UHGV virus genome: UHGV-0333071
DNA from: a virus
Length of the DNA: 24,121 nt
Direction: 5' to 3' (one strand)
Every line of letters begins with the position of its first letter. Within the stretch, counting starts at the first letter, position 1. Made by a program: the position numbers and the translations under genes. This document shows, piece by piece, positions 17,636 to 23,616 of the stretch. The notes below the pieces were generated by a model. That model worked only from the letters and a program-made list of their open reading frames with translations. It made no database searches and had not been told where the DNA came from.

Positions 17636-20227
17636 TTAATTTCTCAACATCTTCCAGTATTCTCCAATAGGGTCGAAACGAAGTTTTGACGAAGCTACTC
17701 CATGCTCATCACGCAGCCGCTCCCATAATTTATTCACCGTCCGTGACTCGTTGGGTAATTGACGCGTTATCAACTGGCCGCCAGCACTGGCCCGATAAAC
17801 TTTGCCGCTAATCTCCAGACGGCTCCCCATTAACAGCGAAACGGCCTGAATCTCTGAAATCTCAACCAAACACAACGCCGCATCAGCCAGCAGACTGGCA
17901 ACCGCAGGGGCAAGAACTGCCCGCTTGGCTTTTTCAGCCGCCGATCTGGCCTCGGTTTTTTCCACGGCAGAACGCCAGGCGGTATCTAATTCGCTTCCTA
18001 GCTCGTAAGGCGATCCGCTTTTCTGCCTTTTGAATGGTGTTTCACGTAGTCGCCGCATCAATTTGCGCCGCGTTGACTGGTCCATATTTTCAAAATCGAC
18101 GATTTCTTCTTCTGACTCTTCTGTCATACCCTCCACATCAGGCGAAAAATTGGTGATTTTTTCGGCTTCCGTAGAGTTATTGACAGAACTCCAAGCGTCG
18201 CCGGTTGGCGACGGCAAAAGATCAACCCCCAAACCGGGGCCGTTTTGGGCCTCGGTGTTAGCTTTGTATTTGGCGCGGATTTTCCACTTAACCAGACGAG
18301 TGCAAATACGGGAGGCATCACCCAGACGCGGCGACCAGACCCCGAAAACCTTTTCGGGGATCTCACAATAAGCATTCATTTCATCAGCTGGCTGATAGGC
18401 CAGACGGACGACATAGTTTTCACGCGGGATCAAAACACCACCCTGGCGGATGATGTAGGTAGCAAAGCACCCGACATCGGCAGCGGCGCAAACCGCATCC
18501 ATTGCAGGATCCACAAGCAACGGCGCACCGCGCTTGAAGGTATTGTCAATTTTCTGGCGGGTCGTGATCTGATTGCTCAGTTTGCGCAGCTCGCGGTAAA
18601 CCGATATGGGCGGCTGTCCGATGGGCTGAAACTGGCGGATGCGGTGGAGTGACGCCCAGGCCATTGCATATTTGGCTGTTTCATTCAGCGGCTTGCCGCT
18701 TTCGTCGTCCAGTTCACCGGCCAGCGCGTGACCGTCGATATTCTTCGAAATGTATTTGGCGATATACGCCGTTGCTGACCCTTTCCGTGGGTCCATTTTT
18801 TTTGACTTGAAACGAGCACCGGTATTGCGGCCCAGCTCGTCGCGGTCTTCCGCAATGAAGTAGGCGCGAAGGATCGCAACCGTGGCTTTAACCTGCTCTT
18901 GTGGCATAAATAGCAACGCGTGCCAGTGTGGCGTCCCATCGTGATGCGGTTCGGCGACGCGGAAGCCATAAGGGCGCAAATCTTCGCGTTTCAGTTTGGC
19001 GGTTGCCCGGTTCCATACACGGCATAAATAGCGCTGCGCCTGGGCGACGGTGGAATGATTCCATTTGGCGTTATGGTGGCCGGACGCAATATTGCTGTGA
19101 TATTTCGACGGGCAAGTAATGGTCAGGAAGATGCCAACATCGCCGCGACTTTGGGCGACAAGTTCAACCCCAGCCATTCGGGCCATAAGCTCATGGCGAC
19201 GAATAGCCGGGTTAGACGTGGATTTATTAATCATTTCCTCAAGCGACGAAACGTTGCCGTCTTCGTCTACCAGTTCATGACTTTTGAAAAAATCCCGGTT
19301 CTTACGGCGCTGTTCCTGCCACTCGATCAGGCTGGAAGCGCTAACGTAGACGTGCGCTTTTTTATTTACCGCGCCAACAGCACGCAGCTGGTTCTCGCGC
19401 CAGTCACAACGCAAGCGCCAGATTTTGCGCCCCCACCAGTCAGGTGAAGCCATACGCAAAATGGCCGTGCATATGCGCTCGCGTTCCCACGGCGCATACC
19501 ATGCAGGCGGCACAATACGAAGCGCCAGCATTTCGCGGCCCAGGTGGCAATAAAGCCAGTCCAGTTCTTCGACGTTCATGTCGGAAACATTCCGCCCCAG
19601 GGCTTCGCATTCCGTCCCAAGCATTTCAGCCATGCGGCTGGCGATCTCATTAGCGGCGCTTAGTGCCTCCCGCTTTGTGAAATCAGCCAGTCGTTGCCAG
19701 CGCCCGAACCAGTACGCGGCCAGTTCGCCGGTGAGATCAGGCGAAACACCTTGCCTTGTGCGCACAACATCAAGACGCAGCAATGATTTTTTCACGGTCC
19801 CCATAAGAAAATCATTGGTGTGTCTGGCTTCACGGTTGGCCCGTAACCATTCAATTTTTTTGCGCCAGACTTCACGAATGAAGAACGGCTCTGATAATAA
19901 ACGCGCTTCGACACCTTCCGACGTATTGGCCCAGGCTGCCGCCGTAGCTTTGGCGGCTTCCATTTCCTGCCGGATTATATTTTGATGGACGGCCAGTGGC
20001 AGGCCGCACGGTTCGTACCTGTCCAGCGCCTGGATAAGCGCGTTACGGTCGCGAACATCGTCGGGGTTGTAACCGGCGCGTTTGAAGATGTGATCGATGT
20101 GTTTTTTTACGGCAGGATGATGCGCCACCGCCCCGGCAAGCGGGGCGATTTTTTTCGGTTCGTAGGTGTACAGGCCAACAGCTGGGCGCGGCGCGTTCCA
20201 GGACCATGCAAAAGCGGCGTCAGACAT
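17636..20227 (-). CDS. A: Replication initiation endonuclease, P2 gpA family
   Basis: N-terminus ..AFAWSWNAPRPAVG.. resembles P2 gpA (..AYAWNAPREAVG..) as recalled. Preferred start is the ATG at 20227 (GAGG RBS); the ORF track uses GTG at 20248. Confidence 0.85.
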   Translation of the reverse strand: MSDAAFAWSWNAPRPAVGLYTYEPKKIAPLAGAVAHHPAVKKHIDHIFKRAGYNPDDVRDRNALIQALDRYEPCGLPLAVHQNIIRQEMEAAKATAAAWANTSEGVEARLLSEPFFIREVWRKKIEWLRANREARHTNDFLMGTVKKSLLRLDVVRTRQGVSPDLTGELAAYWFGRWQRLADFTKREALSAANEIASRMAEMLGTECEALGRNVSDMNVEELDWLYCHLGREMLALRIVPPAWYAPWERERICTAILRMASPDWWGRKIWRLRCDWRENQLRAVGAVNKKAHVYVSASSLIEWQEQRRKNRDFFKSHELVDEDGNVSSLEEMINKSTSNPAIRRHELMARMAGVELVAQSRGDVGIFLTITCPSKYHSNIASGHHNAKWNHSTVAQAQRYLCRVWNRATAKLKREDLRPYGFRVAEPHHDGTPHWHALLFMPQEQVKATVAILRAYFIAEDRDELGRNTGARFKSKKMDPRKGSATAYIAKYISKNIDGHALAGELDDESGKPLNETAKYAMAWASLHRIRQFQPIGQPPISVYRELRKLSNQITTRQKIDNTFKRGAPLLVDPAMDAVCAAADVGCFATYIIRQGGVLIPRENYVVRLAYQPADEMNAYCEIPEKVFGVWSPRLGDASRICTRLVKWKIRAKYKANTEAQNGPGLGVDLLPSPTGDAWSSVNNSTEAEKITNFSPDVEGMTEESEEEIVDFENMDQSTRRKLMRRLRETPFKRQKSGSPYELGSELDTAWRSAVEKTEARSAAEKAKRAVLAPAVASLLADAALCLVEISEIQAVSLLMGSRLEISGKVYRASAGGQLITRQLPNESRTVNKLWERLRDEHGVASSKLRFDPIGEYWKMLRN

Positions 20228-20241
20228 GGGATGCCTCGCTA

Positions 20242-21246
20242 TTACCACGTTTCCGGGTTATCGGACGGCTCGCAAATATCGCAGTTGCCTCGACAATCAA
20301 ACGACCATCCCTCCTCACATGCGGCGATACCTGGGCAACATTTCGCACAGTGACCACCTTCATAGCGCCCGCAGCCATCACAGACAGGCAGCACGCCGAT
20401 TACTTCACTGGCGGCCCCTCGGGTAATGGCGTTCGCGCTGACAGAACGGTTAACGCTGATTTCCTGGAAGTTGAAAGCGCGATAAATCTCGCGGGTAGCT
20501 GGGGTGTCGCTATTTGACAGGATCACCGGCGAACCAGTAAGGCGGTTAGTATCCAGCAGGGCGGCAGCTAACTGGCGATGCTCTTTAATGCCAAACGGGG
20601 CAGTGTGGTATTGGGTGAAATTAGCGGTGTCGCTTGCTGGCAGGTATGGCGGATCGCAGTAGATAACCGCGTCACTACCAATCATGATTTTTAACGTGCT
20701 CTGGAAATCGCAGCACACGAAAATAGCTTTCGTGTCGTTAGCTTTTTCAGAGAATAAACGGATCTGTTCTTCCGGGAAATAAGGCGGGGTTTTGTGTCGC
20801 CCAAAGGGAACGTTATATCCACCCTGTTGGTTGTAGCGTACTACGCCGTTATATCCGTGACGGTTCAGGTAAAGAAATTGTGCTGCACGAAGAATCTTGC
20901 CCGTGTCCGGTCCGTCCTCAAACACATTGCGCGATGACAGAAGGTCATGGGCGCGAGCGTTGAAATCGTCGCGGATCCACTTATAGCCGTCTTTATCGCC
21001 GTACACTTTAAACAGCGGGCGAGCAGCGTCTATCACCGCATCAGGCCAGCGGGTTATCTGGCGATACAGGTTAATTAAATCTGGGTTGATATCACTCAGG
21101 ATATAACGGCGATATTCAGTATTGAGGAAAACAGAAGCACCGCCGACAAACGGTTCCACCAGGCAATCGGCTTTTGGCAGAATCGGCAGCAAATCAGGCA
21201 TAACGCGGCCTTTACCACCGGGCCATTTAACGAGAGATCGAATCAT
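20242..21246 (-). CDS. dam: DNA adenine methyltransferase (Dam family, GATC-type) with Cys-rich C-terminal extension
   Basis: Near-colinear similarity to E. coli Dam as recalled (..KWPGGKG.., ..CLVEPFVGGASVFLNT.., ..FLYLNRHGYNGVVRYN.., ..VIYCDPPY..). Extra C-terminal tail of about 50 aa with ten cysteines. Confidence 0.85.
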   Translation of the reverse strand: MIRSLVKWPGGKGRVMPDLLPILPKADCLVEPFVGGASVFLNTEYRRYILSDINPDLINLYRQITRWPDAVIDAARPLFKVYGDKDGYKWIRDDFNARAHDLLSSRNVFEDGPDTGKILRAAQFLYLNRHGYNGVVRYNQQGGYNVPFGRHKTPPYFPEEQIRLFSEKANDTKAIFVCCDFQSTLKIMIGSDAVIYCDPPYLPASDTANFTQYHTAPFGIKEHRQLAAALLDTNRLTGSPVILSNSDTPATREIYRAFNFQEISVNRSVSANAITRGAASEVIGVLPVCDGCGRYEGGHCAKCCPGIAACEEGWSFDCRGNCDICEPSDNPETW

Positions 21247-21721: not shown

Positions 21722-21943
21722 CTACGCAAAGATGCCCATTAAGCGGGAAAACCAGCGGCGCTTATTACGCGGGCGCGACATAAACGGTACACGGCAGTTT
21801 TTAACAAATTGAACATCTGCCGCTTTAGGCTGGAAGAACCGCCCGTCCGGGGTTTCAATCCAGCCGCGTTGATGCTGACGGTGGGTGATCTGCTGGCCGT
21901 GGGTGAGCAGGCTGGCAAGTGAAGGGCATTGTGTTAAGTCCAT
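21722..21943 (-). CDS. Hypothetical small basic early-operon protein (73 aa)
   Basis: Preferred start is the ATG at 21943 (GGAG RBS 6 nt upstream; MDLTQCPSLASLL...); the longer track ORF from 22015 would run into the opposite-strand gene. Confidence 0.45.
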   Translation of the reverse strand: MDLTQCPSLASLLTHGQQITHRQHQRGWIETPDGRFFQPKAADVQFVKNCRVPFMSRPRNKRRWFSRLMGIFA

Positions 21944-22081
21944 GTTGATCTCCGTCATATTCAAAAAGTGCCGGGATACAACCCCACGCCCGGCGCGTGT
22001 TTCCTGTGATAACATCGCTATGCCTGTGAAACTTTGAGAGGTGAATCAGGCATAACAATCACCAACACAGAAGGAGTTGTA

Positions 22082-22917: not shown

Positions 22918-23193
22918 TTATGATGGATTGCCCAGACCCAACCACATTAACCACCCTTCCCTAATTTCCTTCGGGCGGCTCTCATACGCCATTTTCATTC
23001 CGTTGTTCCAGGCTGGGAGGTAGACCCAGTACTCACCTGCCCGCCCGGAAGTTGATTGCGGATCGGTCATCTCAACTACGGGTAGCTTTCCTTTTTCAAT
23101 CATTCCCCTTACTGCTGCCGGTGTTTTGCCGATCAGTTTTGCAAACTCCTGGTACGGGACAGCATCACTAATACTGACAACTTGTTTGCTCAT
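22918..23193 (-). CDS. cox: Cox (excisionase / repressor of the lysogenic promoter)
   Basis: 91 aa, near-identical along its length to P2 Cox as recalled (..AVPYQEFAKLIGK..GKLPVVEMTDPQS..GRAGEYWVYLPAWNNG..ESRPKEIREGWLMWLGLG..). Confidence 0.9.
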   Translation of the reverse strand: MSKQVVSISDAVPYQEFAKLIGKTPAAVRGMIEKGKLPVVEMTDPQSTSGRAGEYWVYLPAWNNGMKMAYESRPKEIREGWLMWLGLGNPS

Positions 23194-23316: not shown

Positions 23317-23616
23317 ATGTCAACGCCCATAAGCGAAAAACTAGCGTTAGTTCGTGAGTCAGAGCGACTAAACCGGAAGCAATTCGCTGAAATAACAGGA
23401 GTTCCTTACAGTTCTCTAACTTATTATGAGAGCGGAAGAACTACGCCACCCACTGACGTAACGATGAAAATTCTCCAGCACCCCAGATTTAGCAAATACA
23501 CGTTGTGGTTTATGACAGATCAGGTTGCTCCCGAAGCCGGTCAGATAGCACCGGCCCTCGCACACTTTGGGCAAGATGTAACAACATCGCAGCACTCAGA
23601 CCAAAAGATTGGTTAA
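23317..23616 (+). CDS. C: Immunity repressor C
   Basis: 99 aa, closely matching P2 C as recalled (MS..ISEK..L.R.SE.L.R.Q.A..TGVPY..L.YYESGR.TPPTDV.M.ILQ.P.F.KYTLWFMT.Q.APE.GQIAPALAHFGQ..). Confidence 0.9.
   Translation: MSTPISEKLALVRESERLNRKQFAEITGVPYSSLTYYESGRTTPPTDVTMKILQHPRFSKYTLWFMTDQVAPEAGQIAPALAHFGQDVTTSQHSDQKIG

Follow-up and report, generated by a model that had tools for sequence, protein, structure and literature searches.

Why should the DNA adenine methyltransferase (Dam) of a prophage end in a long acidic stretch crowded with cysteines, and is that stretch a genuine part of the enzyme? The question is raised by the viral genome UHGV-0333071, whose 24,121 nucleotides (referred to here as the window) encode such a Dam. 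We found that this C-terminal tail is real, translated and under strong purifying selection, and that it is exchanged between related enzymes as a module. Its cysteine pattern, its charge and its last residues point, with somewhat better than even confidence on our part, to a metal-stabilized adaptor or regulatory tail, zinc being the default metal, and not to a DNA-binding finger.

A Dam-family enzyme with a selected cysteine-rich tail

The open reading frame (ORF) encodes 334 amino acids and its C-terminal end, ..VCDGCGRYEGGHCAKCCPGIAACEEGWSFDCRGNCDICEPSDNPETW, is followed by TAA and TAG; the protein stretch directly before these stops reads ..GVLPVCDGCGRYEGGHCAKCCPGIAACEEGWSFDCRGNCDICEPSDNPETW, and the second, in-frame TAG occupies positions 20239-20241. 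A preliminary description of this DNA had placed the tail at 20245-20400 and quoted its end; both are right, the coordinates spanning codons ~283-334. The same description counted ten cysteines, where the tail has nine, all within 37 residues (amino acids 289, 292, 300, 303, 304, 310, 318, 322 and 325); a tenth is found in the allele of phage SEN5, where it aligns with R319 of the window protein. Cysteines make up 9 of the 48 residues at positions 287-334 compared with 4 of 286 in the body, a strong enrichment (binomial P = 2e-8).

To assess selection, the last 49 codons were compared with three diverged alleles, from phage SEN5 and from the metagenomic prophages L005 and L006. The ratio of nonsynonymous to synonymous substitution rates (dN/dS) in the tail was 0.06-0.18; synonymous sites were close to saturated (dS 0.43 to >1.5), and all nine cysteines were retained in the three alleles. 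A frame or sequencing error as the origin of the tail, which the preliminary description had considered and which would have left the cysteine frame unconserved, is excluded by these values and by the conserved cysteines. The tail is a real, translated sequence under strong purifying selection.

This tail allele, called type A here, was then sought in genome collections by a pattern scan. The scan returned a single match in 185,579 species genomes (Citrobacter meridianamericanus) and six in IMG/VR; in the seven further loci the tail was identical or near-identical and always attached to a Dam of 327-334 amino acids with the DPPY motif. The nine-cysteine allele is rare, yet always attached to Dam. 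The exact window protein is recorded as ‘MULTISPECIES: DNA adenine methylase [Citrobacter]’, has been deposited for several Citrobacter species, belongs to a 90%-identity cluster of 218 members and has near-identical copies in Salmonella enterica.

The product of the ORF is a Dam-family (D12-class) N6-adenine DNA methyltransferase. We base this assignment on the matches to PF02086 (Pfam; E 5.6e-58, 197 bits against a cut-off of 22) and TIGR00571 (NCBIfam; 260.7 bits against 114.85), on motif I FxGxG at residues 33-36 (FVGG at 33) and motif IV DPPY at 198-201, in the order of the alpha class, on 46% identity with Escherichia coli Dam (2G1P, 4RTJ) over 261 aligned residues with the same motif order, and on the fold. 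In a Foldseek search the full-length AlphaFold2 model, with a mean predicted local distance difference test score (pLDDT) of 81.6, matched E. coli Dam structures with E 5e-26 and template modelling (TM) scores of 0.91-0.93, normalised to the target. The FxGxG and DPPY columns were invariant in 96 homologues. The equivalog for the host enzyme, NF008152/PRK10904, scored 258.4 bits against a cut-off of 441, and judged by these profiles the window Dam is a phage paralogue and not the chromosomal Dam. The alignment partners of the residues that we take to be the GATC contacts of E. coli Dam (K9, Y119, N120, R124 and P134) are identical in the window protein (K7, Y132, N133, R137 and P147), while L122 is replaced by V; GATC methylation is predicted from these conserved contact residues. 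The sequence GATC occurs 99 times in the window, where 80 +/- 8 occurrences are expected, and neither avoidance nor informative clustering of GATC was seen within it.

With 334 residues the window protein is 56 longer than E. coli Dam (278 amino acids), in agreement with the excess of about 55 noted previously; however, only ~38 of these residues lie in the tail, and ~20 are extra body residues, mostly in an insertion at approximately amino acids 97-117. Amino acids 285-334 stand in place of the last 12 residues of E. coli Dam, and the two ends differ in character: that of E. coli Dam is basic and without cysteine, whereas the 50-residue tail of the window protein is acidic and has nine. The window enzyme also differs from E. 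coli Dam in being phage-borne, within an early replication operon. The body insertion falls between the parts that bind S-adenosylmethionine and recognize DNA; it is variable among homologues, and in the model its loop at amino acids 105-109 has a pLDDT <50.

Exchange and distribution of Dam tails

Comparison at the DNA level showed that body and tail have different nearest relatives. Up to approximately codon 285 the body shares 95-100% identity with Salmonella phage SI7, after which homology ends, and matches of the gene to E. coli prophages end at 20396. For the tail, in contrast, identity is 88-90% with phage SEN5; over the body, SEN5 reaches only 53-75% against the window Dam. The 5' junction of the tail module was placed where identity to SI7 falls and identity to SEN5 rises (Table 1). 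Relative to SI7 (L001 3360-4631), a type A tail of 150 bp is found in place of ~1.26 kb that hold the SI7 tail, a hypothetical ORF of 75 amino acids and the gene for the cytosine methyltransferase Dcm. On the 3' side, a TAATAGCGAG(G/A)(C/G)ATC stretch follows every type A tail irrespective of the next gene (gpA, Dcm or another), and at least five different genes were found downstream of type A tails. Furthermore, different tails occur on the same body within single 90%-identity clusters. The window tail is modular, one allele among the interchangeable C-terminal tails of the Dams of this lineage. An appended module, as first described, is thus borne out both by purifying selection and by exchange that is independent of the body.

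These junctions also bear on a possible origin of the tail as an artefact or as a neutral by-product, such as a sequencing or frame error, read-through into a spacer or a functionless leftover of recombination. Such an origin would agree with a tail that starts exactly at a mosaic junction and with the tail-less state of some relatives. We nevertheless regard it as extremely unlikely, since the frame and the nine cysteines are conserved despite near-saturated synonymous sites at the low dN/dS given above, the same protein is present in many independent assemblies (the 218-member cluster and several Citrobacter species), and the tail was found at seven independent loci.

Cysteine-rich tails as such are not an oddity of this gene, as had been implied, but common in this lineage of prophage Dams. 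Among the 120 closest homologues, which belong to Enterobacterales wherever the source names the organism and are mostly 300-335 amino acids long, the pattern CxxC-x(5-12)-CxxC was present in 77, usually as VCxGCGRxGGGxCPDCGP. Tails with cysteines mostly hold 4-7 of them, and a minority of homologues are tail-less or carry a tail free of cysteine. The sequence after the knuckles varies, from ..AMGDATYNEMLATAAANGVEAF through ..CAGYS..ESDSDVLPGYWESEENPIPL to the five-cysteine second cluster of the window protein, and another tail type in relatives has the spacing C-x4-C-x2-C-x5-C. All seven loci inspected for gene content were P2-like early operons of prophages or phages of Enterobacterales.

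Among 50,697 phage records searched with the tail, only SI7/SW3/SW5, phiT5282H and SEN4/SEN5 were matched. The Dams of jumbo Erwinia phages match only to amino acid 286 of the query, so that the tail is not common to them. A split gene, with a zinc-ribbon ORF downstream of tail-less Dams, was also considered and rejected: none was found there, and a small protein with a ..ELPF tip was present instead.

W-x-G-[FLV]-D-[PL]-A is a recurrent motif of the tails that lack cysteine (homologues P0015, P0061, P0096 and P0106, and locus L004), and a similar W-[VIM]-x-V-D-P-[AS] stands at the N-termini of small downstream proteins (L005 4975-5271 and L015 4145-4432). At a similar place the window tail reads GWSFD. 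From these motifs, some Dam tails would seem to have originated when the gene fused with the beginning of the one that follows it.

Putative metal knuckles, charge and the C-terminal tip

The first half of the window tail contains two CxxC knuckles seven residues apart (Table 1). Structure prediction, which the preliminary description had called for, gave a mixed answer. The full-length AlphaFold2 model was confident at the first knuckle (amino acids 281-300), with pLDDT values of 92 for residues 281-290 and 81 for 291-300, fell to 67 for 301-310 and was <50 at 314-334. When AlphaFold2 was given only the tail, together with 19 tails, the mean pLDDT was 44, too low to be usable for a fold search. 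The first knuckle pair is plausibly structured, and, because the model is confident for the knuckle stretch together with the preceding strand, the last of the catalytic domain, the knuckle may pack against this domain.

Profile searches assigned the tail to no family. Pfam gave no significant match on three tail types and, even with E as high as 10, none on the window tail; the best match of any tail was an RZ-type ZnF (E 0.08), on a related tail and not on that of the window. NCBIfam returned no family on the tail, and PHROG 56 spans it but is described merely as ‘DNA methyltransferase’. The CXXC domain, the DnaJ CxxCxGxG motif and the Ogr/Delta zinc finger were considered and rejected, as none matched by profile and their cysteine spacing differs. 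The earlier term ‘zinc-ribbon-like’ therefore holds for the CxxCG..CxxC signature of the first half but not for any match to a zinc-ribbon family or structure.

The tail alone was also used as a query for protein sequences. A word-index homology search, with a tool insensitive for so short a query, returned just one Dam fragment of 91 amino acids. An exhaustive phmmer search of the 49-residue tail against 1.84 billion representative proteins gave six matches, all to giant repeat proteins, and revealed no other protein context for the tail. The repeat APTCxxTGLTEGxHCSVC of these proteins resembles the PVCDGCGRYEGGHCAKC of the tail. They were not taken as a sign of homology: the E-values sum many repeats, and we read the likeness as a common knuckle pattern. 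The giant proteins (P0122-P0127, 643-3106 amino acids) are themselves built of ~37-residue repeats of the form ..H-T-x-V..APTCxxTGLTEGxHCSVC.., and this cysteine/histidine repeat is possibly an undescribed, repeated metal-binding mini-domain.

So many cysteines could also be the ligands of an iron-sulfur cluster or form a redox-sensitive switch, by which methylase activity would be coupled to the cell's redox or iron state. The nine cysteines within 37 residues would allow for this. In addition, the C-terminal [4Fe-4S] loop of EndoIII/MutY has the spacing C-x6-C-x2-C-x5-C, to which the C-x4-C-x2-C-x5-C of related tails comes close, and the top PDB profile matches of the tail were ferredoxin and glutaredoxin-like proteins. 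These matches were weak (E >= 1) and not significant, however, the EndoIII/MutY spacing is not reproduced, and the C-x7-C-x3-C-x2-C of the window fits no known iron-sulfur motif. The commonest core of the lineage, CxxCG..CPDCG, is a typical rubredoxin or zinc-knuckle pattern. We consider an iron-sulfur or redox function quite unlikely.

The charge of the tail bears on DNA binding. With only three basic residues (K/R) among 48, amino acids 287-334 have a net charge of -6; across 91 distinct tails 88% were net negative, with a median of -4, while the bodies average approximately +5. From the strongly acidic tail and the basic enzyme body we infer that the tail does not bind DNA. A DNA-binding zinc ribbon, altering the enzyme's choice of target, its processivity or its affinity (such as that for DNA in hemimethylated or single-stranded form at the phage origin), is unlikely in this light, even though CxxC..CxxC knuckles are common in nucleic-acid-binding zinc ribbons, the motif is conserved and the Dam gene lies directly upstream of that of the replication initiator gpA. 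No DNA-binding zinc-finger profile matched the tail, and near-identical enzymes have hypervariable sequences behind their knuckles, which is unusual for an element that reads DNA. Of the roles first suggested for the tail, DNA targeting is accordingly the least probable, and partner binding or regulation fits better.

The last residues form a pattern of their own. The last residue is F, L or W in 75 of 111 long tails and F in 49 (against a background of 5%), mostly with acidic residues before it. Type A tails end in DNPETW, DNGEPF or DNGENF, and other related tails in ..EENPIPL, ..NAEPF or ..VEAF. In PMC5872125, the C-terminal DDDIPF of SSB, a protein that binds single-stranded DNA, is described as a docking hexapeptide.

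Comparable tips were seen on small, unrelated early proteins of unknown function, encoded just downstream of Dam in related P2-like prophages. The proteins at L005 4975-5271 and L015 4145-4432 end in ..SIEDTPF and ..DPDDELPF, and that at 5208-5429 in both L006 and L007 in ..LLDEAPF. The L015 protein has eight homologues in the databases, each of them with ..ELPF at its end. The tip is missing from shorter homologues (L005 5271-5444 and L003 3472-3651), so that it behaves as a portable C-terminal motif.

A different reading of the same tip is a degradation or turnover signal for a host protease, which would keep phage Dam low or transient, with the knuckles as a mere spacer. Host Dam is subject to Lon proteolysis, and over-production of Dam is mutagenic; non-polar or aromatic last residues are, moreover, strongly enriched across otherwise unrelated tails. 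However, the acidic residues before the last one are unlike the classic non-polar tags of the ssrA type, and a turnover signal leaves the conservation of the cysteines unexplained. We hold this reading to be very unlikely.

The metal-stabilized adaptor or regulatory tail remains the reading that we favor. Most probably the CxxCG-x7-CxxC knuckle pair would chelate one metal ion, and in the type A allele the five further cysteines (C304 and the second cluster) could form a second metal site. The free acidic-aromatic C-terminus might then dock on a partner protein, as the SSB tip does on its clients, or, alternatively, fold back onto the enzyme's own basic DNA-binding surface and act by autoinhibition.

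Several observations weigh against this proposal. No zinc-finger or zinc-ribbon profile or solved structure in Pfam, NCBIfam or PDB matches the tail, the tail profile giving no significant match to PDB sequences (best E 1). Given the pLDDT of the last 21 residues and of the tail alone, the tip and the second cluster could lack order or fold only once metal is bound. Some related prophage Dams are tail-less (277-283 amino acids) or have a tail without cysteine, so that the tail is not needed for methylation as such. The frequent tail swapping could in part be a recombination by-product at the edge of a variable cassette. Finally, DNPETW resembles DDDIPF in general character alone (acidic, with a proline and a C-terminal aromatic residue).

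A more far-reaching version of the adaptor, which we regard as rather unlikely, is that the tails are metal-scaffolded arms presenting a peptide like the SSB C-terminus. The peptide would be a portable docking motif of P2-like early proteins (Dam and the small ..ELPF/..EAPF proteins), tethering the methylase and early factors to the host hub of SSB clients at replication forks or competing for it. Rapid tail swapping would, in that case, adjust the enzymes to different partners or help the phage to evade sensing by the host.

Orphan Dams are widely found in phages; their life-cycle roles are still poorly understood (PMC7556043). The window enzyme itself is of a known kind and already annotated automatically; its tail is unannotated and without a match in Pfam, NCBIfam, PDB or the literature, and no description of cysteine-rich tails on phage Dam was found in the literature searched. 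A Dam lineage of Enterobacterales with a selected, modular and probably metal-binding acidic tail offers a concrete experimental handle, giving access to the question of whether regulation, recruitment to a partner or autoinhibition acts on such enzymes. A tip that is a docking peptide would connect phage methylation with the hub of replication and repair in the host; a tail that is only a stabilizing zinc knuckle would bring a modest gain in annotation, a new C-terminal domain family for Dam.

Genomic setting and comparison with known systems

Table 1. Positions of the Dam gene, the parts of its tail and other features of the window.
Feature	Position	Strand	Basis or remark
Dam methyltransferase gene	20242..21246	-	334 codons and TAA; ORF list, sequence, PF02086, TIGR00571
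Catalytic body, aa 3-284	20395..21240	-	phmmer against PDB aligns E. coli Dam 5-266; AlphaFold2 model
Insertion in body, ~aa 97-117	20896-20958	-	
C-terminal tail, aa 285-334, type A allele	20245..20394	-	Cysteine-rich and acidic; dN/dS, DNA identity to SEN5
First cysteine cluster, C289-x2-C292-x7-C300-x2-C303, then C304	20335..20382	-	Knuckle pair CDGCG..CAKCC, presumed first metal site
Second cysteine cluster, C310-x7-C318-x3-C322-x2-C325	20272..20319	-	Type A tail only
Acidic tip EPSDNPETW, aromatic last residue	20245..20271	-	Sequence; tips of homologous tails
Approximate 5' recombination junction of the tail module	20366..20410	-	Inside conserved ..SEVIGVLxVCxGCG.. codons
Second stop TAG, GAGG ribosome-binding site and probable gpA ATG	20225..20241	-	Conserved 3' boundary of the tail module
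Helix-turn-helix repressor gene	23317-23616	+	
Cox gene	22918-23193	-	P2-type (PF10743)
Fil homologue	21722-22015	-	Phage-186-type (PF10893)
AAA_13 ATPase gene, 762 aa	15179-17467	-	Between gpA and portal/terminase genes

The genes around Dam form a P2/186-like early operon, with the helix-turn-helix repressor, Cox, two genes of unknown function, a Fil-like gene, a phrog_7428 gene, Dam and gpA (Table 1), and Dam is the early-operon GATC-type methyltransferase of a P2-like Citrobacter or Salmonella prophage. Its direct neighbors are the phrog_7428 gene upstream (131 amino acids, function unknown) and the gene for the gpA replication endonuclease downstream; both were inspected, and no nuclease partner was seen adjoining Dam. 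The best PADLOC match of Dam was likewise the ‘orphan methyltransferase’ model (E 6e-88). With no cognate restriction endonuclease next door and with the D12 profiles matched, the earlier identification as an orphan Dam-family enzyme stands.

The mechanically called gpA ORF begins at GTG 20248 and overlaps the 3' end of Dam. The true start is likely the ATG at 20227, 7 nucleotides after a GAGG: MSD(A/T)AFAW opens the protein at this position in the relatives L010, L012 and L013. Elsewhere in the operon, the combination of a P2-type Cox with a 186-type Fil illustrates the mosaic P2/186 character of the prophage. The AAA_13 ATPase matches the PADLOC candidate defence family PDC-S06 (E 3e-76), and its position is presumably the accessory ‘hotspot’ at which P2-like phages carry anti-phage genes such as old and tin.

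The closest known counterparts are the phages SI7/SW3/SW5, phiT5282H and SEN4/SEN5 (Peduoviridae), in which Dam lies between Cox and gpA and has the knuckle core VCxGCGRxGGGxC..C, as in the window. SEN4/SEN5 have a type A tail with three differences in 49 residues from that of the window, whereas the tail of SI7 and phiT5282H is the short, commoner one, CPDCG..ATYN..VEPF or ..DLEAF. In SI7 and SEN5 a Dcm gene lies between Dam and gpA, while in the window the tail abuts gpA directly. None of the records of SI7, phiT5282H and SEN4/SEN5 annotates the tail.

Zinc ribbons and rubredoxin-like knuckle pairs (CxxCG...CPxCG) resemble the tails of this lineage in their two CxxC knuckles with glycine and proline signatures and in the short glycine-rich turn that separates the knuckles. 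Compared with rubredoxin, however, the spacer of the tails (7-8 residues) is much shorter, and no zinc-ribbon or rubredoxin family of Pfam matched. The eukaryotic CXXC zinc finger of DNMT1 and MLL offers a conceptual analogy only, as a cysteine-rich, two-metal domain on a DNA methyltransferase. CXXC domains have two CGxCxxC motifs and a KFGG motif and are basic; the window tail is acidic, lacks the CGxCxxC pair and KFGG and has no Pfam match, and is not a member of that family.

With regard to the C-terminal tip DDDIPF of SSB, the window tip DNPETW does not end in I-P-F, and its carrier is a methyltransferase and not a single-strand-binding protein. Like SSB, on the other hand, the tails of this lineage combine a flexible segment, an acidic run and a hydrophobic or aromatic last residue.

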